The notes under the pieces were generated by a model. The model worked only from the letters and a program-made list of their open reading frames with translations. It was not told where the DNA came from and did no database searches. The position numbers were made by a program, and so were the translations under genes. Below, in pieces: positions 14,096 to 48,835 of a stretch of DNA of 64,000 nucleotides. Within the stretch, counting starts at the first letter, position 1; each line of letters starts with the position of its first letter. The DNA is from Escherichia phage KBNP1711, in the sequence record NC_023593.1; one strand, written 5' to 3'.

Positions 14096-14160
14096 GACCT
14101 AAGTCCTGCCTTCTATAATGTATATAGGGGGTAGGACATTTTTATTTATAAGGAGACGTT

Positions 14161-23553: not shown

Positions 23554-23778
23554 ATTTTAATTTCCTTATTTAATTTAAGATTGTTGCTCACTTTGAGCGG
23601 TTATGTATAGTATACATTACACCTATACCGATAAGAGTGCTATGTAGTATAAGCATCAGTGGTAGTAGATATTGACTACTAGTAATGTATATATTGTATA
23701 GATGATAATTCTATTGCAGGCTTGTATATTGGGCAATTCTCAGAATCCCTTGCAAGTACCGAAGGGCAGGAGACACCT

Positions 23779-33380: not shown

Positions 33381-33590
33381 TTAATATTCTTTTACATAAT
33401 AAACCACTAAGGTTCCCATCTCTGACAATGTTGATTTATGTAAGCTTACTTTACTATAAATCTTTGGAGCCATCTTAAGAGCCTTCTTAAAACGGCGAGC
33501 ATCTTTACGAGTAGCAAAGTGCTCTGTAACAGGTATAGACAGATCTTGGTAGATATAATATACCACCGTCCAATATTTTTTCATAATCAA
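33381..33590 (-). CDS. small basic protein, paralog family B
   Basis: KKYW...TRKDARRFKK...VYYV pattern shared with 35447..36083 genes. Confidence 0.4.
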   Translation of the reverse strand: MIMKKYWTVVYYIYQDLSIPVTEHFATRKDARRFKKALKMAPKIYSKVSLHKSTLSEMGTLVVYYVKEY

Positions 33591-34049: not shown

Positions 34050-34235
34050 TTATAGCATACAAAGAATAATAACAAGAGGTAGTGTTATAGCAAAATGTAC
34101 CAGAACAACACTACCTAGCTTGATAGCTTTAACATCCTCTTCTGCTGGGTTTTCTTTAATTGCTAAATTTCGAGCTTTATATATAACAGTACCAACTATT
34201 AACGACCACACGGCCCACACAATCAGTGAAATCAT
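34050..34235 (-). CDS. small two-TM membrane protein (paralog pair)
   Basis: IVWAVWSLIVG...KENPAEE...AIKLGSVVLV pattern. Confidence 0.4.
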   Translation of the reverse strand: MISLIVWAVWSLIVGTVIYKARNLAIKENPAEEDVKAIKLGSVVLVHFAITLPLVIILCML

Positions 34236-34244
34236 ATCAAACCC

Positions 34245-34424
34245 TTATGCAGTCCACAGGTGGAGAAGGAAAGGAATCACAATAGTACAAACTACCAGAG
34301 CGATGCTGCCATGTTTAATAGCTTTAGCTTCACTTGGATTTTCTTTAAGCATCTGCTTCTGGGCCAGATAGACGATACCACCAATAATGATTGCCCAAAA
34401 AGACCATACGATTGCTGAAAACAT
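34245..34424 (-). CDS. small two-TM membrane protein (paralog pair)
   Basis: Internal Met of track ORF 34245..34631; IVWSFWAIIIG...KENPSEAKAIKHGSIALV. Confidence 0.4.
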   Translation of the reverse strand: MFSAIVWSFWAIIIGGIVYLAQKQMLKENPSEAKAIKHGSIALVVCTIVIPFLLHLWTA

Positions 34425-34485
34425 ATTCACATCCTTATAAAGAAGTTCGCCCCACCTCGGATTAGGAGACAGGGCGGAGGTTTGA

Positions 34486-35070
34486 TTAGTAAGACACGTC
34501 ACCACTGGAGTGGGACATGTTGCTCTTGACGAAGTAACAGAACTTTCCAAGACCTTCATTAATTTCTTGAAGCATACTCTGATCAACTGGATAGGTGCAC
34601 AAGTCTGAATCAAACTCGTCCATCTTCTCAATGATACACATAAGAGTCATGCACATGTCAGAAAGCATACCGTCCATGTCGAGATCAGCGTTACCTTCTC
34701 GGAACCAAGCACAACCAAGATAGCTACTAGCTGTTGCATCCACTTTAATGCAGTGATAACGCATTCGCTCTGCTACCCGATCACCAGTTTCACGAGCATA
34801 ATCTTCTAGTTCATCGAACATACCGTGAACACCTTGGAAACCAGCTCCAGAGACGTTCCAGTGATAGTTCTTTGATTTGATGTGTAGAAGTTCAAGGTTA
34901 GCCTGCACACCACACAGGATGTGCTCTAGGCTGTTACCGCTAATCAATTTATTCATTCCCTCTAGACGAGAGATAGAAGAGTCAGTTGTAGAGAATGGGT
35001 TGCTAGAACCCACTCGTGTCAGTTCAGGTAAGTCGAAGACATTATTATGCATTAGGTTCATCTCCTTCAA
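34486..35070 (-). CDS. Dps-like ferritin-fold protein
   Basis: YHWNVSGAGFQGVHGMFDELEDYARETGDRVAERM matches the Dps helix B/C signature. Confidence 0.5.
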   Translation of the reverse strand: MKEMNLMHNNVFDLPELTRVGSSNPFSTTDSSISRLEGMNKLISGNSLEHILCGVQANLELLHIKSKNYHWNVSGAGFQGVHGMFDELEDYARETGDRVAERMRYHCIKVDATASSYLGCAWFREGNADLDMDGMLSDMCMTLMCIIEKMDEFDSDLCTYPVDQSMLQEINEGLGKFCYFVKSNMSHSSGDVSY

Positions 35071-35374
35071 GCTCAGTAGAGTTAGCTACATTTCGTTCCA
35101 GATTTGAGATTACCTGTTGGGTGATAACGATGCAGTTCTGTGGGTCAACTGACTTAGAACGTCCCATCTCAGGGTCATACACCTTAACACGTTTTGCTGT
35201 AGAACCAGTTACCTGTAATACCTTGAGAAGATAACCCTGATTCCCGATAGACCATGCAACAACATCACGATTCTTGATGAATCGACCAAGCATATCACGA
35301 TGATAGAACTGCTGCATAACCTTTGATTTATTAATCTCTTCGGCTGGCGGAGCCACTTTACTCAAATCTAACAT
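35045..35374 (-). CDS. hypothetical protein
   Basis: 109-aa ORF. Confidence 0.4.
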   Translation of the reverse strand: MLDLSKVAPPAEEINKSKVMQQFYHRDMLGRFIKNRDVVAWSIGNQGYLLKVLQVTGSTAKRVKVYDPEMGRSKSVDPQNCIVITQQVISNLERNVANSTELEGDEPNA

Positions 35375-35446
35375 TTCACTCTCTCCTGTTTAACACAATA
35401 TTCTTATACTGTATATACATTTGAGAGTGATCATATCTACTACCAA

Positions 35447-35656
35447 TCAGTAGTAAATTACTTTAGACATAAAAGAACCAGTGTTAGGGTCTTCATGCCA
35501 GCGATGTATGTCAGCGCTTTTTACTATTGTGCCCAGAGTCTTCAACTGTTTCTTAGCAATACGAGCCTCTTTGCGAGTGTCAAACAATTTGATGTTATCT
35601 TTTCTCATATGTTGCTCAAGATCCCAAACAACATGAATAGCCCACATCTTTTTCAT
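35447..35656 (-). CDS. small basic protein, paralog family B
   Basis: Tandem array member. Confidence 0.45.
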   Translation of the reverse strand: MKKMWAIHVVWDLEQHMRKDNIKLFDTRKEARIAKKQLKTLGTIVKSADIHRWHEDPNTGSFMSKVIYY

Positions 35657-35871
35657 TAGTAATGTACCTTTCCGCTGATATAAATACGGCCTGAGGTATA
35701 CTCATAGCCCTTGAGAATCTTAACAGAGGTAGTGGAGCCATCGTTTAGTGCACAGATTGACTTCTTAAGATTGCGTGCATCTTCTCGTGTCTTCTGGTAG
35801 GTCATGGTCACACCCCCACTCTTCCACTCTGTTTTAACTAACCAAACTATTTTCATAAGACCTGCTCTCAT
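35656..35871 (-). CDS. small basic protein, paralog family B
   Basis: Tandem array member. Confidence 0.45.
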   Translation of the reverse strand: MRAGLMKIVWLVKTEWKSGGVTMTYQKTREDARNLKKSICALNDGSTTSVKILKGYEYTSGRIYISGKVHY

Positions 35872-36083
35872 TAGTAGTACACCTTGCTACCAGCCATAAA
35901 TGCCCCTGTTGAGTTTATCATGGCTTTGCTGATAGTAACTTTCTTACACCGTAAACATACCTTCCAGTTCTTTTTACAGATTCGAGCTTCTTGTCGAGTG
36001 TTACAAAAAATAGCCGAAGATATTTCTTGGGTGTTGTTATCATAAACACGAACACACCACTTTTTCATTGTTCCAAACTCCAC
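35871..36083 (-). CDS. small basic protein, paralog family B
   Basis: Tandem array member. Confidence 0.45.
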   Translation of the reverse strand: MEFGTMKKWCVRVYDNNTQEISSAIFCNTRQEARICKKNWKVCLRCKKVTISKAMINSTGAFMAGSKVYY

Positions 36084-41623: not shown

Positions 41624-42841
41624 TTAAAAGTTTACTACTTCACCATTAACGGTAGTTACTGATGCAAGACGACGAACACGACCAATCTGTTCACGACTAA
41701 TTGGAGTGTTCCAACCAGAGCGATAGAAGTTGCGACCGCAGAAGAATACAACAACATTAGAAGCAATCCGTCCGTAGTTACGATCAGGGTGGTTGATATT
41801 CGCTAGGTAATATCCACGGGTCAGGTTTGCATTTTCATTAATGGGACGAGCATTTGGTGCAGTTGTTTCAGCTTGCATCACTTCTTGAACTTCTTCAACA
41901 ACAGGCTCAACTGTAGGAGTATCACCAGCTAAAGCAAAGTTCTCATCAGCAGCCTCTTCTGCATCATCTTCCAGCTCCACAGTTTCCTGAATAACTGGCA
42001 GAGGGTATGCTACACGATACTCAGGGTTTTGACCACGGAGAGACTCAACATACTGCAAGAAGTTGTGCTGGTAAGTTTCCAGAGTCGTACCAGTCAGGCC
42101 CGGAGCGGTGTTAACTTCTAACACCCATGCTTCCTCGCCTTTACTGATAATGTCAACAGCACCAAAGTTAAGACCGAGTGCTTGTACTGCTTTGTGCGCT
42201 TGAATCAGAACCTGATCATTTGGTGAATCATTAAAAGCATTTGAATAAACCCAACCAGTGTGATGATTACGAACATCTTCACGATAGTCAGGGTTATCAC
42301 GATACCCATTACGACGAATCTTCTTCTGTACGTAAGTAATAACACCTTCAAAGACATGAACACGCCATTCACGACGTGGGCCAGTGATTGCTTTCGTGTA
42401 CAGAGGAGCCTCTGCAATACCTTCACGAGTAAGACGAACAGTGATACCTTCACCAGAGTGACCGTTCAGTACACCACGTTCATAAACAATACTATTTCGG
42501 TTCCAGTTCTGTGCTTCTTCACGATTAGTGGTATATTCAACAGTCTTGACTTCCGCAAGACGCATAGTATTGAAAGCTGCAACCTTGTTCGCCGCACGAT
42601 TCAACGCTGCTACGTTGTTCAGGACCGTTGCACCTTCGAAGAAGGATTCTTGATAACGACGGTTTCCGTAGTTGATGATCACATCACCAGAACGAGCACG
42701 GAATCGGCTGGTTCCATCAGACAGAAGAGCCATTGCGTTAGCATTGATTCGGTTGTCACGGAGATGTTGATTCAAGCTGGACACCAGAGCATTAACAGAA
42801 TCAGAAGGGCCATAAGGGAGAACACGGATACGAGTAGTCAT
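41624..42841 (-). CDS. ATP-grasp family ligase
   Basis: EWRVHVF and LGLNFGAVDIISKGEEAWVLEVNTAPGL match the ATP-grasp C-terminal nucleotide-binding motifs. Confidence 0.55.
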   Translation of the reverse strand: MTTRIRVLPYGPSDSVNALVSSLNQHLRDNRINANAMALLSDGTSRFRARSGDVIINYGNRRYQESFFEGATVLNNVAALNRAANKVAAFNTMRLAEVKTVEYTTNREEAQNWNRNSIVYERGVLNGHSGEGITVRLTREGIAEAPLYTKAITGPRREWRVHVFEGVITYVQKKIRRNGYRDNPDYREDVRNHHTGWVYSNAFNDSPNDQVLIQAHKAVQALGLNFGAVDIISKGEEAWVLEVNTAPGLTGTTLETYQHNFLQYVESLRGQNPEYRVAYPLPVIQETVELEDDAEEAADENFALAGDTPTVEPVVEEVQEVMQAETTAPNARPINENANLTRGYYLANINHPDRNYGRIASNVVVFFCGRNFYRSGWNTPISREQIGRVRRLASVTTVNGEVVNF

Positions 42842-42843
42842 TT

Positions 42844-43077
42844 TTAGATACCTTTAAGTTTAAGAATTTCGTTGCGAGTACGTTGGATACGTTCTTCAAG
42901 AGTGTGATAATCAAAGATGCAGATCTCTTCTGCTTCATCAGAAGGTGCATCCATTAAACCCATAGCAATCGGATACACTTTTCGCTGTTCCGTTGTCATG
43001 TTCTGTAGCCGGAGTCGTTGATACTCCAGCAGGGTAATTTTCGGCTTGTTAGTTTCCTTGCTTGACATGAGGCTCAA
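42844..43077 (-). CDS. hypothetical protein
   Basis: 77-aa ORF. Confidence 0.3.
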   Translation of the reverse strand: MSLMSSKETNKPKITLLEYQRLRLQNMTTEQRKVYPIAMGLMDAPSDEAEEICIFDYHTLEERIQRTRNEILKLKGI

Positions 43078-43282
43078 CCTTGATACCTTTCAGTTTCACA
43101 TAGTCAGCCAGCACGTTGTTAATAACTGTTGGGAAAGGAATCTCAACAGGTGCATTAACTAACCCACCAATACCCTCTTGCATCCACTTCTGGATTGCAC
43201 GAAGGTTATCACATCCTGTGCTTGTCATTGGAATACGGCGAGTGGTTACAACGTTATCCAACATCATCTTACGAATTTCCAT
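43049..43282 (-). CDS. hypothetical protein
   Basis: 77-aa ORF. Confidence 0.3.
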   Translation of the reverse strand: MEIRKMMLDNVVTTRRIPMTSTGCDNLRAIQKWMQEGIGGLVNAPVEIPFPTVINNVLADYVKLKGIKVEPHVKQGN

Positions 43283-43292
43283 AATACACCTC

Positions 43293-45311
43293 TTAATTAT
43301 GACCTTTACAGTGCACTGAATCGCACACCACTTGATTGGTATTGTTTAGTGTGCAGAGTTCTGCATCACGCCACGGAATCTTTTTAAAACAGACTGCACA
43401 AAACCCCAAAGTAGACCAGAGGGCTTTTGTGAAGGTTGCTGAACGGTTTCCATCGGAAGAGGCAACTGTTCTGGTAATTGAGACTTTTGACTCACGAAAG
43501 GTTTCCGCTACTGGAGCGGATTCCTCCTTTGGGGTAGTCACTGCAATAGCATAAATACCACCCCAACGCTTCTCAATGTAAGCACCGAATACATCTTCCA
43601 GAGTGATTTCACTCTTACGCTTGGTTGAGGATTCCATGACAACCATGTTGTCCAGAATCTTTTGATCGACACGAAGAGCTACTTCAGGACGTCGAGCACT
43701 TGTTGTATCAACACACTTAGTCCAAACATAACCCTCTTTCAGGGTGACTTGAGTTGCTTGCTTCTTTGCTTTATTAGCACAGATTTTACAAACATCGTCA
43801 CCACGAAGTTTACTGAACTCTTCATCAAATTCAAAGTCAGACTTCACTTCACCGCACACCGAACAAACACCGATAGGAATCTCATCCTCTTCAACGTCTT
43901 CTACTTGCTTCTGGATAGAATCAAAACAAGCTTTATGCCAATATGCTTGGTATGCGAAGATTGCACTTGGGGCTTCTTTCCAGTCGATGTGCTTATCACA
44001 GCCACCACAATCACCATGGGAATGGGCTTCCCAGAACTTACGAGTGATAGTCACCCCATTCTTGCTGACAAAACTATCCTCTGCATCAAAAGGGATATCA
44101 TCATCGAAATCAGCTGTAGTGCTTTCCGGCTCCTTTTTCGACAAGTCAAAGAAGTGACCAGAGATCAACACCAAACGAATCATGCTATTAACTTCAGAAA
44201 TACAGCCAACCGTACCACGGTAAACCATATGCTTATTCTTAAGAGCAGCTTCGTAATCAGTTTGCAGGATGTTATGAACATCACCCTCAATATACTCTTG
44301 AGCTTTGTCATCATAAATATAACCAACCATCTTACCGCGATCGGTATCTTTATAACAAACAAACTCGTGAGGAATAATATCAACCTGCATATCACGACGG
44401 ATATCAACACCTTTGTCAGATGCGATCTTGTTTTGTTTCAAGATTGCTTCACGACGACGTACATCACCTGCGGTTACGCCGGGCTTTCTTTGCTCGTCGC
44501 TGTTCCCGTTTACGTAACTTTTTATCCCGCTTGAGTGATTGTTGCTGTAGCTGTTCGAGTAATAACTTCCCCAACGCGTTGCTACCGTAAAAACCGGGAG
44601 TTCATGTACGACCTCCTCTACCAAAGTCATCTTGTTGTCAGAAACATCAAAGATGTACTCTGTACCGACTTTACACTCAAAGTGCTCATCGATTCGATTC
44701 TTGTGGCTCTTAGAACGCTGAAGAATCCACATCAACATAGCTTCTTCTGAAGCACCAAACCATGAAGTTCCCAGACGGGCCAGATGGAATGGACGCTCAT
44801 CGTTGCGAATGATGTGAAGACGGTTATCACTTGCATCATGCCAGATCAGAGTGAATGCACCATCCAACTTCTGAATAGTCTCTGCTGCACCAATCTTGTT
44901 AATAGAGTGGCAGATGTTCTCACTATCAACCTCAAAAACCTTACTGTCAGGCAGAAGGTCTTGATCAACTAAGGTTCCGTTATGAACCAGAGTGATGTTT
45001 CCGTGAGAGAATGGGTGAGCGTTACGTGAGTTAATAGCACCTTTCGTAGCATGTCGGCTATGACCAACAATCCATGAAGGAGGCACTGTGTAATTAGTAA
45101 GGCCAGTTGTCAGCTCGGTGTACTCTTTCTGTAACATGAAAGCATAGGAAGGTAGTGCTTCTTTGTAAGAGAACACAGATCTTTCGCTTTTACGCTGACC
45201 GAAAATACCAGTTGAGTGTTGACCACGAAATACACCAGCATAAAGAAGCTGGTTGTAAACATCTAAGTCATAACTTGAGAGGCTTCCACCTGCTAATACG
45301 ATACCACAAAT
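43293..45311 (-). CDS. class-II (Ntn) glutamine amidotransferase domain protein with long Cys-rich C-terminal extension
   Basis: Hand translation upstream of track start gives (ATT)-CGIVLAGG...VFRGQHSTGI...HNGTL; SD AGGTGG 8 nt before ATT 45311; track ORF begins at GTG 45176. Confidence 0.6.
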   Translation of the reverse strand: MCGIVLAGGSLSSYDLDVYNQLLYAGVFRGQHSTGIFGQRKSERSVFSYKEALPSYAFMLQKEYTELTTGLTNYTVPPSWIVGHSRHATKGAINSRNAHPFSHGNITLVHNGTLVDQDLLPDSKVFEVDSENICHSINKIGAAETIQKLDGAFTLIWHDASDNRLHIIRNDERPFHLARLGTSWFGASEEAMLMWILQRSKSHKNRIDEHFECKVGTEYIFDVSDNKMTLVEEVVHELPVFTVATRWGSYYSNSYSNNHSSGIKSYVNGNSDEQRKPGVTAGDVRRREAILKQNKIASDKGVDIRRDMQVDIIPHEFVCYKDTDRGKMVGYIYDDKAQEYIEGDVHNILQTDYEAALKNKHMVYRGTVGCISEVNSMIRLVLISGHFFDLSKKEPESTTADFDDDIPFDAEDSFVSKNGVTITRKFWEAHSHGDCGGCDKHIDWKEAPSAIFAYQAYWHKACFDSIQKQVEDVEEDEIPIGVCSVCGEVKSDFEFDEEFSKLRGDDVCKICANKAKKQATQVTLKEGYVWTKCVDTTSARRPEVALRVDQKILDNMVVMESSTKRKSEITLEDVFGAYIEKRWGGIYAIAVTTPKEESAPVAETFRESKVSITRTVASSDGNRSATFTKALWSTLGFCAVCFKKIPWRDAELCTLNNTNQVVCDSVHCKGHN

Positions 45312-45385
45312 TTTCTAATCCACCTGAAGGGTAAACCCTTTCATCTAATTAACCTTTAATTGTGCCCCTTTCGAGGCACCCATTG

Positions 45386-46486
45386 TTACAGCAGTCGTTC
45401 TAACTGAATTTCCAAGTGGTCTGGAATATACTCAGTGACGTTGTTATCAGAGACGCCAGATTCACGCATCATGTTGAGCATGTTACGAATCTGCCCTTCT
45501 GTTGCTTCACGAGTTTCACTAATCTCTGTTTCATACAGAGCCATGATCTCGTTATGAACATCTTGAGCATTACCACGGACATATCCGAGGAAGCCATAGA
45601 AGTCAGACATATCACGAAGGGATACAACTACCGACCCACTACTATCAAGAGTTTGTAAACGAATACGCCCAACCTGACGCACAGATCGGTTACGACAGAA
45701 CAGGATATCACGAGCCAGACGATAACCGCTATCAAGATCTTCGTGTCTTGGGGTGTAGTCCAGAGGTAGGTGCGGGAGCATAGGGTCAAAACGAACCCTG
45801 TTGAGCATCTCAACAAACTCTTCATTGTCCATCTCTGCATTTTCAACTGCTAATTTCTTAAGAACCAAGAAGCGGTTTACCAGATTTAACAGCTGACCTT
45901 TCTTCCACTTAGGCTCTGAGATACGGAACTCAACAGAACCGAACTGAGCCAGAGGGAGTAGGTTGAGTGATGTGTACTTATCCCAACGGTCGACGATATG
46001 TCGGAAGAAGTTCTCACCTTCGTAGTTAAATGCTTCAGAAGCGTTCATTACTTGAGCCTGAACCACTGCAAAAGCAGGACAGAAATTACTACGGTAACGG
46101 TGATAACCAGAGCACTTAAACATCAATGCTTCATAGAAAGTCCACCCAAGGATAACTTTCTTAACGATATTGCTATCAGCATCTCGCATATCCATATGAA
46201 CGTGAGTGGAACATCGCCAAGTCCCTTCTGCTTCGGACTCCATCACTGCCTCACTCAGATTGTTGATAGCGTCAAACAGTTCTACACCATTGTAAGGGCG
46301 AGAACAGACCATTTCACATCCGTTGCGAAGCGAGCCATCCTCTGTACATTCCCACATATCTGCTTCGATATGATCGTCACCTTCAAGCTCCAGCTCAATA
46401 CCAATACCGCATTGGAATGCGATACTCGGATGTGCTTCACTCAGACGATTACTACGGTATCCAAAAGCTTGCGCTACAGTTGTCAT
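45386..46486 (-). CDS. glutamine synthetase-like amidoligase (carboxylate-amine ligase) candidate
   Basis: IGIELELEG near N-terminus and CSTHVHMD resemble the Glu-x-Glu and His-x-His metal motifs of GCS2/amidoligase enzymes. Confidence 0.45.
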   Translation of the reverse strand: MTTVAQAFGYRSNRLSEAHPSIAFQCGIGIELELEGDDHIEADMWECTEDGSLRNGCEMVCSRPYNGVELFDAINNLSEAVMESEAEGTWRCSTHVHMDMRDADSNIVKKVILGWTFYEALMFKCSGYHRYRSNFCPAFAVVQAQVMNASEAFNYEGENFFRHIVDRWDKYTSLNLLPLAQFGSVEFRISEPKWKKGQLLNLVNRFLVLKKLAVENAEMDNEEFVEMLNRVRFDPMLPHLPLDYTPRHEDLDSGYRLARDILFCRNRSVRQVGRIRLQTLDSSGSVVVSLRDMSDFYGFLGYVRGNAQDVHNEIMALYETEISETREATEGQIRNMLNMMRESGVSDNNVTEYIPDHLEIQLERLL

Positions 46487-47097
46487 AACGACTCCACTAA
46501 CTCCACAGTGTATTGGTTAAAATCACTTTCAATATGCTTGAACTTGTCAAGCAGTTGTACGGTCTGACGACCACGGCTGTCATATCCAGCACTAAGAAGC
46601 ACACGACCAACATGTGCACCTTTATAATAAACAAGACCATCAGAAGGATTGATGAAGATAAAGCGAGTCAACAAGCCTTCAAAGGATGGGTTAAACAGGT
46701 TATAAACCATCTCACCAGAGATGTTACGACCTAGAGAAGTTACGCCACGGAGTTTGTTACCCATCAACCCCTTAGCTCGCTGACGAACTGGATTGATGTG
46801 AGTCCAACTTACCATGTTACGTCCGTGTTGAAGATAACCAACATCAGGGGATTCCAGAATCAGGTTAGGGTTGAAAACCCCAATCTGAACTGTTGTACGG
46901 TTAAACCCTGAGTCTGTTTTAAACCAACGCTCTGCTTCGAACATCAAAGCCATCTCTGCTTCATGAGAGAAGTCATCACGAGAGAACTCACCTTGTTGGA
47001 ATACGTTCATAACAAACAGTGGGATGTTTAAGTTCCCACGTCTTTCAGCAATCCATGTCCCACAATAGTAATGAGAGAAGTCAGTTACTAAGCTCAC
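46483..47097 (-). CDS. hypothetical protein
   Basis: 204-aa ORF inside the ligase cluster; Cys at position 12. Confidence 0.4.
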   Translation of the reverse strand: MSLVTDFSHYYCGTWIAERRGNLNIPLFVMNVFQQGEFSRDDFSHEAEMALMFEAERWFKTDSGFNRTTVQIGVFNPNLILESPDVGYLQHGRNMVSWTHINPVRQRAKGLMGNKLRGVTSLGRNISGEMVYNLFNPSFEGLLTRFIFINPSDGLVYYKGAHVGRVLLSAGYDSRGRQTVQLLDKFKHIESDFNQYTVELVESL

Positions 47098-47106
47098 GAT
47101 AACCCC

Positions 47107-47913
47107 TTACGCTACCTGTAAACGTTTCAAGAACACATCTGCTTCACGAACATCGTTGGTGTTGATGATCTGGTGCAGCTTTTCAATCGGAAGGCGAGAG
47201 TGGAGGCTCATCAAGAACTCCATGTCGCTATTTTGTACAACCTTGTCAACTTGATCGTACACGAATTGACGATCTTCTTTCTTGCCAATCCAGAAGTTCG
47301 ACAGAGAGCGATACTCAATGCCATAAGGTTTGTAACGGATTGCGGATGCTTTACCGTACAGCTCTTTACGTCGAGTATCACCATCCATCAGAACAGCAGG
47401 CAATGACAGGAAGTAATCACACAGAACGCCCAGCATCATCTGAACCTTCTTATTCACATCCAGAGAGCCAGTGACACCAATGTGCACATGACCACCTGCT
47501 GTACGCAAGCCCTTGTTCTCTGAAGTTGGAGAAGCATTCTTTTGACCAGTGAATGCGTTGAAGTCTGGAGTACAACCAAACACGAAAGCGGACGGATGGA
47601 ATGATTCCAATTCCTCTTTAGAGAAGATATGAGAACTTACACCCAGAGCCGCTTCCATGTCCTGTTTCTTCAGAACTTCGTTGGTAAGATCAATACCGCG
47701 CTGAACGTTGTCATTAAACGCTTCAAAACCTTGTTGTGGGTTGATATCAAACTCAGCCAGCACGTTGTCTTCTTGGAGACGTACATCCTTAGCCAGATCG
47801 ATTTTATTTTCTTTAGAACAACCCAGCTTGCCAGCAACAGAGGTGATGATGCCAGAAGAAGTACGAACAAACATCTCTGGGTCCGTTCCAATTAAAAAGA
47901 TGCGCTTAGTCAT
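47107..47913 (-). CDS. glutamine synthetase/GCS2-like amidoligase candidate
   Basis: Internal Met start MTKRIFLIGTDPEMF and RTAGGHVHIG motifs. Confidence 0.45.
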   Translation of the reverse strand: MTKRIFLIGTDPEMFVRTSSGIITSVAGKLGCSKENKIDLAKDVRLQEDNVLAEFDINPQQGFEAFNDNVQRGIDLTNEVLKKQDMEAALGVSSHIFSKEELESFHPSAFVFGCTPDFNAFTGQKNASPTSENKGLRTAGGHVHIGVTGSLDVNKKVQMMLGVLCDYFLSLPAVLMDGDTRRKELYGKASAIRYKPYGIEYRSLSNFWIGKKEDRQFVYDQVDKVVQNSDMEFLMSLHSRLPIEKLHQIINTNDVREADVFLKRLQVA

Positions 47914-48835
47914 TATAGTATTCCACCAATTCTTTAAAGAGGGATATGATTGTTTCTTTGTTGCTCTCCATATTAGAGCCGCAACGACTTTCAATACGTT
48001 CTAAGAAACCATTTACATTGATGTTAGAAATCTTTTCATCAAGAGATGAACGTTTCCAACCAGTGCTCATAGACCAAACTCTCAAAAAGGTACTCATTGA
48101 AGAGTACATCTCTGCGTTTTGGTTTCGACGACGAGCAATACGACGAAGAGCTGCACGGTCATGGTTTCGGATATACCCTGATGTGTTATCACCTTCTCCG
48201 ACTTTGTTTTGCAACCAAACGTCGGTTGAAAACTCACCTGTATTGCAAATAATCGGAAGAAATGCAAATGCTGGTAAATCATGCGGTAAATAGATAGATG
48301 TTGATTCGTCAGTGGAGTCATTAACTCTATCAAAGTTAAGCTCCCCAAAGAAGTCCTTACTTACCCCAGCAAGAGCTAGAGCTAATCCAACACGACGACG
48401 GAATAGCCATTCTTCTCTATCATCAACTCCCTCTGAAAGAAAATCCATAGATTCATACTCGCAATCGAGATAGCTACGGAAAGTCATTAGTCCTGTAAAA
48501 ACTTTATCTGCTGCGTGTTCACGAAGATCAACCTCTACACTATTAGCAGAAGTTATTGTGAACATATCTTTGTACATAGAACAGGAGTTCAGTACATCAG
48601 CAGTATCCACCAAATGAGACTCAGTCTCATCCATGTTGCAGTGGGGCCAGTAGTTAATCTTACCCATGTGCGCTGTGAAGTTATCCAAGCTGGTTCGAGT
48701 ACTCAGGCCGTTAATGTCACGAGTGCTAAAGTTGTGCATAGAGTTGTGGATACCGAAACAAACTCGGCTCGCAAAACTCTGCTCACCCAACATATCACTA
48801 ACTTCTACAGGAGCTAATGTTGTGGAAATTGCCAT
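47906..48835 (-). CDS. hypothetical protein
   Basis: 309-aa ORF. Confidence 0.4.
   Translation of the reverse strand: MAISTTLAPVEVSDMLGEQSFASRVCFGIHNSMHNFSTRDINGLSTRTSLDNFTAHMGKINYWPHCNMDETESHLVDTADVLNSCSMYKDMFTITSANSVEVDLREHAADKVFTGLMTFRSYLDCEYESMDFLSEGVDDREEWLFRRRVGLALALAGVSKDFFGELNFDRVNDSTDESTSIYLPHDLPAFAFLPIICNTGEFSTDVWLQNKVGEGDNTSGYIRNHDRAALRRIARRRNQNAEMYSSMSTFLRVWSMSTGWKRSSLDEKISNINVNGFLERIESRCGSNMESNKETIISLFKELVEYYND

Follow-up and report, generated by a model that had tools for sequence, protein, structure and literature searches.

A Dps-family mini-ferritin with an invariant ferroxidase site, encoded next to a gp68-like gene in the phiEco32-like phage KBNP1711

We have examined here a minus-strand gene of Escherichia phage KBNP1711 whose product is, close to certainly, a mini-ferritin of the Dps family, with a four-helix bundle, a short BC helix and the active site typical of that family. 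It lies in a stretch of 64,000 nucleotides of sequence record NC_023593.1 (the window, in what follows), which megablast and tblastn identify as a phiEco32-like podophage of the Gordonclarkvirinae with a sequence of the ECBP2-like (Suseptimavirus) type. A first-pass annotation, made from the sequence alone, had proposed a Dps-like ferritin-fold protein at positions 34486–35070. The open reading frame (ORF) is real, but the 35070 end results from counting from an upstream TTG, and the ATG at 35052 is the likelier start: an AAGGAG ribosome-binding site sits 9 nt 5' of it, and the annotated orthologs in ECBP2, phiEco32, 4E8, and E20-1 start at the equivalent position. The extension upstream of this ATG is probably not translated. 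The protein so defined is 188 residues long (21.1 kDa), and its ATG overlaps the stop codon of an upstream gene for a gp68-like protein, within ATGCATAA. The features of the locus are collected in Table 1.

Table 1. Features at and around the Dps gene, in window coordinates.
Feature	Position	Strand	Basis and remarks
Dps-family mini-ferritin coding sequence	34486..35052	(-)	188 residues plus stop; ORF, PF00210, PHROG 3636, PDB profile and sequence matches, AlphaFold2/Foldseek
In-frame extension from upstream TTG	35053..35070	(-)	mechanical ORF start only; ribosome-binding site and ortholog starts favour ATG 35052
End of helix A to helix B, with ferroxidase-centre residues	34762..34866	(-)	BLASTP alignment and conservation; encodes residues 63–97
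gp68-like protein, 109 residues, phrog_10984	35045..35374	(-)	PHROG E=5.9e-63; stop overlaps Dps start
Tandem promoter-like region	35412..35457	(-)	upstream of gp68-Dps; promoter scan and sequence
Sigma-70-like candidate promoter, TTTACT-16-TATGAT	35457..35430	(-)	promoter scan
AATGTATATA motif, candidate phage-sigma promoter	35421..35412	(-)	sequence match
Terminator-like hairpin	34448..34476	(-)	10 nt after Dps stop; 11-bp stem, 7 G-C pairs, weak T tail

The searches by profile, sequence and structure all lead to Dps. The Pfam Ferritin family (PF00210) matches the protein at 30.2 bits, against a gathering cut-off of 24.5, with only residues 56–99 aligned, and PHROG 3636 ('DNA binding protein', phage Dps-like) matches residues 37–181 over profile positions 3–149 of 149 (E=1.6e-52). 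We collected 32 homologs, of which 21 from phages, with 39–95% identity to the query, were aligned and made into a profile; all 21 match PF00210 (best E=2.2e-13), and the profile covers Dps chains over their full length with E-values from 7e-19 to 1e-9, the best matches being Bacillus anthracis Dlp-2 (7e-19), Staphylococcus aureus Dps (1.5e-17), and Mycobacterium smegmatis Dps2 (about 1e-16). When the single sequence was searched against the PDB with phmmer, nearly all of the 60 matches listed were Dps proteins, and all of those down to E=0.24 were. The AlphaFold2 (AF2) model has a mean predicted local distance difference test (pLDDT) score of 81.8, rising to about 90–97 over the helical bundle (residues 41–180), with helices A (42–66), B (72–99), a short BC helix (108–113), C (126–146) and D (155–177); the N-terminal 40 or so residues ahead of the bundle are modelled with low confidence. 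Foldseek comparison of the model with the PDB returned Dps proteins for 50 of the 50 best matches, with template-modelling (TM) scores of 0.8–0.9 (target) and, for the best, root-mean-square deviations of 1.2–1.4 Å over about 140 residues. With the NCBIfam equivalog for E. coli-type Dps (NF006975) the protein reaches 34.2 bits, where 114 are required, and the archaeal and cyanobacterial Dps equivalogs are likewise matched only far under their cut-offs, so that the phage protein is a member of the Dps family and not an equivalog of the host Dps. The profile search that the first-pass annotation had suggested thus upholds its call, and neither profile nor fold places the protein in a different four-helix-bundle family lacking the ferroxidase ligands.

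Those ligands are all present. The peptide that had first drawn attention to the gene, YHWNVSGAGFQGVHGMFDELEDYARETGDRVAERM, is residues 63–97 of the protein, and an ungapped BLASTP alignment of phage residues 56–96 with residues 43–83 of E. coli K-12 Dps (as encoded in NC_000913.3) pairs H64, W65, H76, D80, D91, and E95 of the phage protein with H51, W52, H63, D67, D78, and E82 respectively. Established structural work identifies E. coli H51, H63, D67/D78, and E82 as the inter-subunit ferroxidase ligands and W52 as the adjacent radical-trapping Trp; the Listeria innocua equivalents of the ligands are H31, H43, D47/D58, and E62, and the L. innocua sequence used for alignment agrees with its published ligand numbering. 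The six site residues are invariant in 21/21 aligned phage homologs, and also in the distant proteins of phages Privateer, SE131, and LAh_9. Among the nearest 135 Dps representatives in a library of 1.84 billion proteins, the His, Asp and Glu positions are kept in 134 and the Trp in 131. The proposed ferroxidase motif therefore withstands the ligand-by-ligand comparison, across all of the phage homologs examined. We also note one odd protein among the representative-library matches (P0063, 1,156 residues), in which 20 separate matches fall on profile positions 53–86, the ferroxidase motif of helices A and B; this suggests either an odd tandem repeat of the ferroxidase segment or an assembly artefact.

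Compared with solved cellular Dps proteins (M. smegmatis Dps2, 4m35/2z90; B. anthracis Dlp-2, 1jig; L. innocua Dps, 1qgh; E. coli Dps, 1dps/6b0d), the phage protein has the same fold and an identical ligand spacing, H-12-H-4-D-11-D-4-E plus the Trp, with root-mean-square deviations of 1.2–1.5 Å, although identity over the fold is only 18–26%. Its surface properties are quite different from those of the E. coli protein. E. coli Dps binds and condenses DNA through a Lys-rich flexible N-terminal tail, whereas the phage protein is acidic (isoelectric point 4.7, net charge -14), with three K/R against five D/E in its N-terminal 44 residues and a single basic residue in its C-terminal tail, and thus has no Lys-rich tail of the E. 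coli type. It also has the poorly ordered N-terminal extension of about 40 residues, in which the motifs MHNNxFDLP and RLxxM are conserved within a Kuravirus-like clade; the extension is missing from the Privateer Dps and other distant homologs. There are seven Cys residues, none of them invariant across the aligned phage homologs, and we propose no redox switch.

The gp68-like protein encoded immediately upstream has no match in a Pfam scan, and it is better conserved than Dps itself, with 53 of its 109 residues invariant in 17 homologs. In all of the phiEco32-like, Privateer-like, and LAh-like loci examined its gene lies between -4 and +17 nt from the Dps match, and in the 7-11/SE131-like phages it lies 1.1–1.3 kb upstream of Dps on the same strand; of the four groups of C3 podophages sampled, three thus have it abutting or overlapping Dps. 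No gp68-like gene was seen beside cellular Dps genes, or the Dps genes of other viral groups, in the loci examined. It is present in 129 phage-database records, and its distribution over genera is that of Dps minus four Streptomyces and Synechococcus records. The AF2 model (pLDDT 65.5) consists of a small beta-barrel of five strands with a helix before and after it, and its core (residues 20–95) is basic, with an isoelectric point of 9.8 and 11 K/R against six D/E. A Foldseek search with this model gave no significant match, only weak Tudor-, KOW-, or SH3-like ones with E-values of at least 4e-3, and a PDB profile match to the designed propeller Tako8 was set aside as spurious because it contains no single significant stretch. 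A PADLOC scan of the Dps and gp68-like proteins found no matches. The gp68-like protein probably acts together with Dps.

The two genes appear to form a compact transcription unit. The predicted promoters upstream comprise a sigma-70-like candidate and, downstream of it, the AATGTATATA motif. The SU10 genome paper (PMC4281155) reports this motif, in the form tAATGTATAtA, for promoters that the phage sigma factor gp36 recognises; it also has a good sigma-70 promoter upstream of CDS68 and classes CDSs (coding sequences) 25–68 as middle genes. The predicted promoter location upstream of the gp68-like gene agrees with the SU10 placement, and in phage 4E8 a 'promoter' is annotated at the equivalent place upstream of gp68-Dps. 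Exact copies of AATGTATATA occur only three times in the window (14117–14126 and 23684–23693 on the plus strand and 35412–35421 on the minus strand), and the shorter TAATGTAT occurs eight times against 2.7 expected, a number that no shuffle reached; we regard these sites as candidate middle and late promoters. The hairpin beyond the Dps stop codon has a minimum free energy of -17.2 kcal/mol (z=-1.48), which is not significant alone, and we describe it as terminator-like because its position is conserved and not on account of its folding energy. ECBP2, phiEco32, and 4E8 each have a hairpin at this position, and the divergent relatives L011 and L012 have a G+C stem of different sequence followed by a cleaner T-run. 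As predicted, then, the unit would consist of a dual promoter, the gp68-like gene, Dps as the second gene and the hairpin, at the start of the SU10-type middle genes.

The neighbours of Dps in the window encode ThyX, thioredoxin, dCTP deaminase, a nucleotidyltransferase, an exonuclease and a primase/helicase, and so the replication-region context noted in the first-pass annotation is borne out, with Dps amid the nucleotide-metabolism and replication genes of a phiEco32-like podophage. The same nucleotide-metabolism module is present in Privateer, SE131, LAh_9, and metagenomic relatives, in many of them together with an anaerobic ribonucleotide reductase (RNR). In Privateer, SE131, and LAh_9 a fragment of about 95 residues resembling the ATP-cone/NrdD N-terminus is encoded directly after Dps (L004 3898–4194, L005 3908–4207, and L006 3929–4201), and the anaerobic RNR gene NrdD lies within a few kb of Dps in LAh_9, which also has NrdG, and in metagenomic relatives (the downstream regions of L007, L011, and L012). 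Neither ATP-cone nor anaerobic RNR genes were found among the window ORFs scanned.

Several small gene families surround the unit. Two tandem paralogous genes directly downstream of the hairpin (34050–34235 and 34245–34424, minus strand) encode hydrophobic proteins of 59–61 residues belonging to phrog_9296, which probably span the membrane; phiEco32 has a single ORF of about that length at this place. Four paralogs of about 69 residues lie around gp68-Dps on the minus strand (33381–33590, 35447–35656, 35656–35871, and 35871–36083), and three of these form a tandem array immediately upstream. Their pairwise identity is 25–33%, with a common TR(K/Q)(D/E)AR..KK motif and a Y at the C-terminus, and the two that were scanned match phrog_4939. 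Farther away, a minus-strand cluster at 41624–47994 encodes a class II GATase, an amidoligase, a COOH-NH2 ligase and an ATP-grasp-like protein (PF13522, PF12224, PF14395, and, weakly, PF07478), and is the known peptide-ligase gene set of phiEco32-type phages.

The closest relatives of the gene are in other phages of this lineage. The phiEco32 gp67 (ABY52868.1), ECBP2 gp65 (YP_006908916.1), and SU10 CDS67 proteins are orthologs of the same length, with amino acid identities of 98.4% to the ECBP2 and 82% to the phiEco32 protein; each gene has the same start-stop overlap with gp68 and lies between the gp68-like gene and the thioredoxin and ThyX genes, and we see no substantive difference from the window's copy. 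The Dps proteins of other C3 podophages (Privateer QIN94861, SE131 gp090, GAP52, and Aeromonas phages LAh_6 and LAh_9) belong to the same subfamily at 31–41% identity, in a module that includes the gp68-like gene, but they are shorter (about 146–156 residues), lacking the first 25–30 or so residues of the window protein, and their genes are flanked by those ATP-cone and anaerobic RNR genes. A tblastn search found the Dps gene in 134 of 50,697 phage records. The hosts named in 130 of these are Escherichia, Shigella, Salmonella, Cronobacter, Proteus or Aeromonas, or the phage is unnamed, and every one of the 130 that we inspected belongs to C3-podophage groups; the remaining records come from phages of Streptomyces (two) and Synechococcus (two). 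A phage copy of Dps is therefore uncommon across phages, as had been remarked, but not within the C3 podophages, where the gene is fixed and long annotated. In GenBank EU330206 phiEco32 gp67 is described as a 'DNA-binding protein; member of the Dps family', a label that dates from 2008. The SU10 genome paper of 2014 lists CDS67 (DPS domain), CDS68, and thioredoxin among the few middle genes common to the five C3 phages then sequenced (PMC4281155), and the Privateer paper of 2021 notes Kuravirus Dps homologs and calls their function unverified (PMC7881722). The finding is thus correct but already known at the level of annotation; what is new here is the acidity of the protein and its want of a Lys-rich tail, the compact gp68-Dps unit, and the position of the gp68-like gene across the C3 groups.

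We also note that Dps orthologs are labelled 'integrase' in many GenBank records, including those of E20-1 (UYE89969.1; L044 401–967), IME267 (P0011), ES17, PAS59, and XT73. The sequence has no resemblance to integrases, and this looks like an annotation error propagated through a strictly lytic group.

The phage gene does not appear to be a recent acquisition from a host. Identity to E. coli Dps is only 39% over 41 residues, and no close cellular relative came out of a pattern-based scan of 185,579 genomes, whose 14 loci were nearly all partial matches, typically to the ferroxidase motif. A profile hidden Markov model search of the 1.84 billion proteins gave 5,204 Dps-like representatives at E≤1e-3 and only seven at E≤1e-30. 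Because of the low identity to the E. coli protein, the lack of a close cellular relative in that scan and the few clusters at E≤1e-30, we consider the phage Dps clade, judged by its sequences, to be a small branch that stands well apart within the family, rather than one captured recently from a host. A cellular donor lineage was sought and none identified, the best scan locus being only 42% identical and on a scaffold of 568 bp. That scaffold (L013, Herbiconiux daphne scaffold643, from an actinobacterial assembly) carries the closest 'cellular' match, 42–45% identical over about 135 residues and alone on the scaffold, and it may be phage or contaminant sequence instead of a chromosomal gene. 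Comparison with the phiEco32 gene gives a dN/dS of about 0.07, with dS near saturation, which indicates purifying selection.

The best explanation overall is that the phage Dps is a mini-ferritin that detoxifies Fe2+ and H2O2 and so protects replicating phage DNA after the host has been shut off, and we put the probability of this reading at roughly 0.7; detoxification of Fe2+/H2O2 as the physiological role is moderately likely. The protein would assemble into a dodecameric shell of the Dps type, Fe2+ would be oxidised with H2O2 at the dimer-interface sites, and Fe3+ would be stored, such that both Fenton reactants would be removed during phage DNA replication and the DNA protected. A phage copy would be needed since phiEco32-type phages inhibit the host sigma-70 RNA polymerase, and the host dps gene would then not be inducible; phiEco32 is reported to encode a small inhibitor of the sigma-70 polymerase (PMC4281155). 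The SU10 CDS67 protein is made in infection, having been identified in published mass spectrometry (MS) of a lysate concentrated with polyethylene glycol (PEG) by six peptides and 35.8% coverage. In lytic infection of Yersinia ruckeri the host dps, catalase and peroxiredoxin genes are among those most strongly induced (PMC7354516), and oxidative stress therefore accompanies infection there. A protective role against oxidative or iron damage has also been proposed for the DPS genes of gut phages (Benler et al. 2021, PMC8008677). These, in the 'Gratiaviridae' and in Lactobacillus phages, we liken to the present gene by description; they are phage-borne too, but belong to unrelated lineages with anaerobic hosts. 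That study called phage DPS rare and overlooked the phiEco32 group. Oxidative or iron protection was one of the functions suggested in the first-pass annotation, and it is consistent with the sequence.

Several points weigh against this reading. Since E. coli hosts have a Dps of their own, what a phage gains from another copy is a matter of argument rather than of observation, and full-text searches for functional work on any phage Dps of this lineage, biochemical or genetic, found only mentions at the level of annotation. The Dps of Privateer has been found in CsCl-purified virions, which a purely cytoplasmic role does not account for. Finally, the L. innocua residues D126 and D130 (E. coli D142 and D146), which line the acidic three-fold pore for Fe2+ entry, correspond to P155 and to S159 or N in nearly all of the phage proteins, and iron uptake may consequently be slower or follow another route. 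A third L. innocua pore residue, D121, aligns with D150 of the phage protein, at a variable position. At position 159 we counted 70 D, 38 N and seven S among the 135 nearby Dps representatives, so that about a third have Asn or Ser there, and position 155 is variable. We therefore dropped loss of the pore Asp residues as a peculiarity of the phage proteins, since the same states are common among cellular Dps; as far as alignment can tell, they are normal variation within the family.

An alternative that we consider unlikely is that the protein condenses DNA, coating phage or host DNA against nucleases or remodelling the nucleoid in the manner of E. coli Dps in stationary phase; an effect on the state of the host nucleoid had also been raised in the first-pass annotation. 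Orthologs are labelled 'DNA binding protein' and the gene lies within a replication module, but the acidic charge and the composition of both tails leave that label without sequence support, and condensation through a Lys-rich tail is unlikely. The label appears to have been inherited from the name of the family, and we found no experiment behind it in the literature. Condensation could be rescued only if the gp68-like protein provides the contact with DNA, as its basic core and small beta-barrel, a fold that often binds nucleic acid, could in principle do, although its model is of low confidence and has no significant structural match. Compaction of DNA or of the nucleoid by the phage protein is thus not supported by its sequence.

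It is less likely again that the protein is virion-associated, residing in or on the very elongated capsid and being delivered with the genome or shielding it, with the N-terminal extension or gp68 serving to dock it. The one real observation in this direction is that the Privateer ortholog, which is 41% identical, was identified by MS in virions purified through CsCl step and equilibrium gradients, beside ten predicted virion-associated proteins (PMC7881722), but a 12-mer that is stable, dense, and possibly loaded with iron could be carried along with virions in a purification. In podophages of the C3 morphotype the gene is fixed throughout, although it belongs to the middle (replication) module rather than to the structural genes. 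An extension with conserved motifs does precede the bundle in the Kuravirus-like clade, but Privateer, whose virions provide the evidence, is among the phages that lack it. We did not count the SU10 proteomics in favour of a virion role: that lysate had been PEG-precipitated only, with no gradient purification, and it also contained DNA polymerase and thioredoxin. A study of purified SU10 virions by cryo-electron microscopy and MS does not mention Dps or gp67, and a search of its text gave only gp20–24 as internal (ejection) proteins, with only the major gel bands analysed.

The gp68-like protein suggests a further, equally improbable arrangement, in which Dps and the translationally coupled, co-inherited gp68-like protein would form a two-part phage module, and the basic gp68 core would tether the cage of acidic Dps either to DNA or to the capsid. 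Such a tether would explain both the missing DNA-binding tail and the presence of Dps in CsCl-purified Privateer virions. If true, it would place a ferritin-like cargo on a shell of the HK97 fold, loosely like the encapsulin-ferritin systems.

The weakest of the alternatives, and a very doubtful one, is that the protein buffers or supplies iron for iron-dependent phage enzymes rather than having a protective function. In relatives its gene adjoins that for the ATP-cone protein and is near NrdD and the Fe-S activase NrdG, but no RNR was found among the window ORFs scanned, none of the identified neighbours (ThyX, thioredoxin, and dCTP deaminase) is an iron enzyme, the gene is still under purifying selection, and Dps proteins are not known to serve as iron donors for Fe-S assembly.

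The analysis confirms the family of this protein and leaves the 'DNA binding protein' and 'integrase' labels of its orthologs without support in the sequence. Two loose ends are the gp68-like protein as an obligate partner and the reported presence of Dps in virions of Privateer, and the gp68-like partner and the compact transcription unit are relevant to any functional study of the phage Dps. If the role in Fe2+/H2O2 detoxification that we favour is true, this phage lineage would supply its own iron and peroxide detoxifier after silencing the stress responses of its host, and would offer an example of a virus managing Fenton chemistry.

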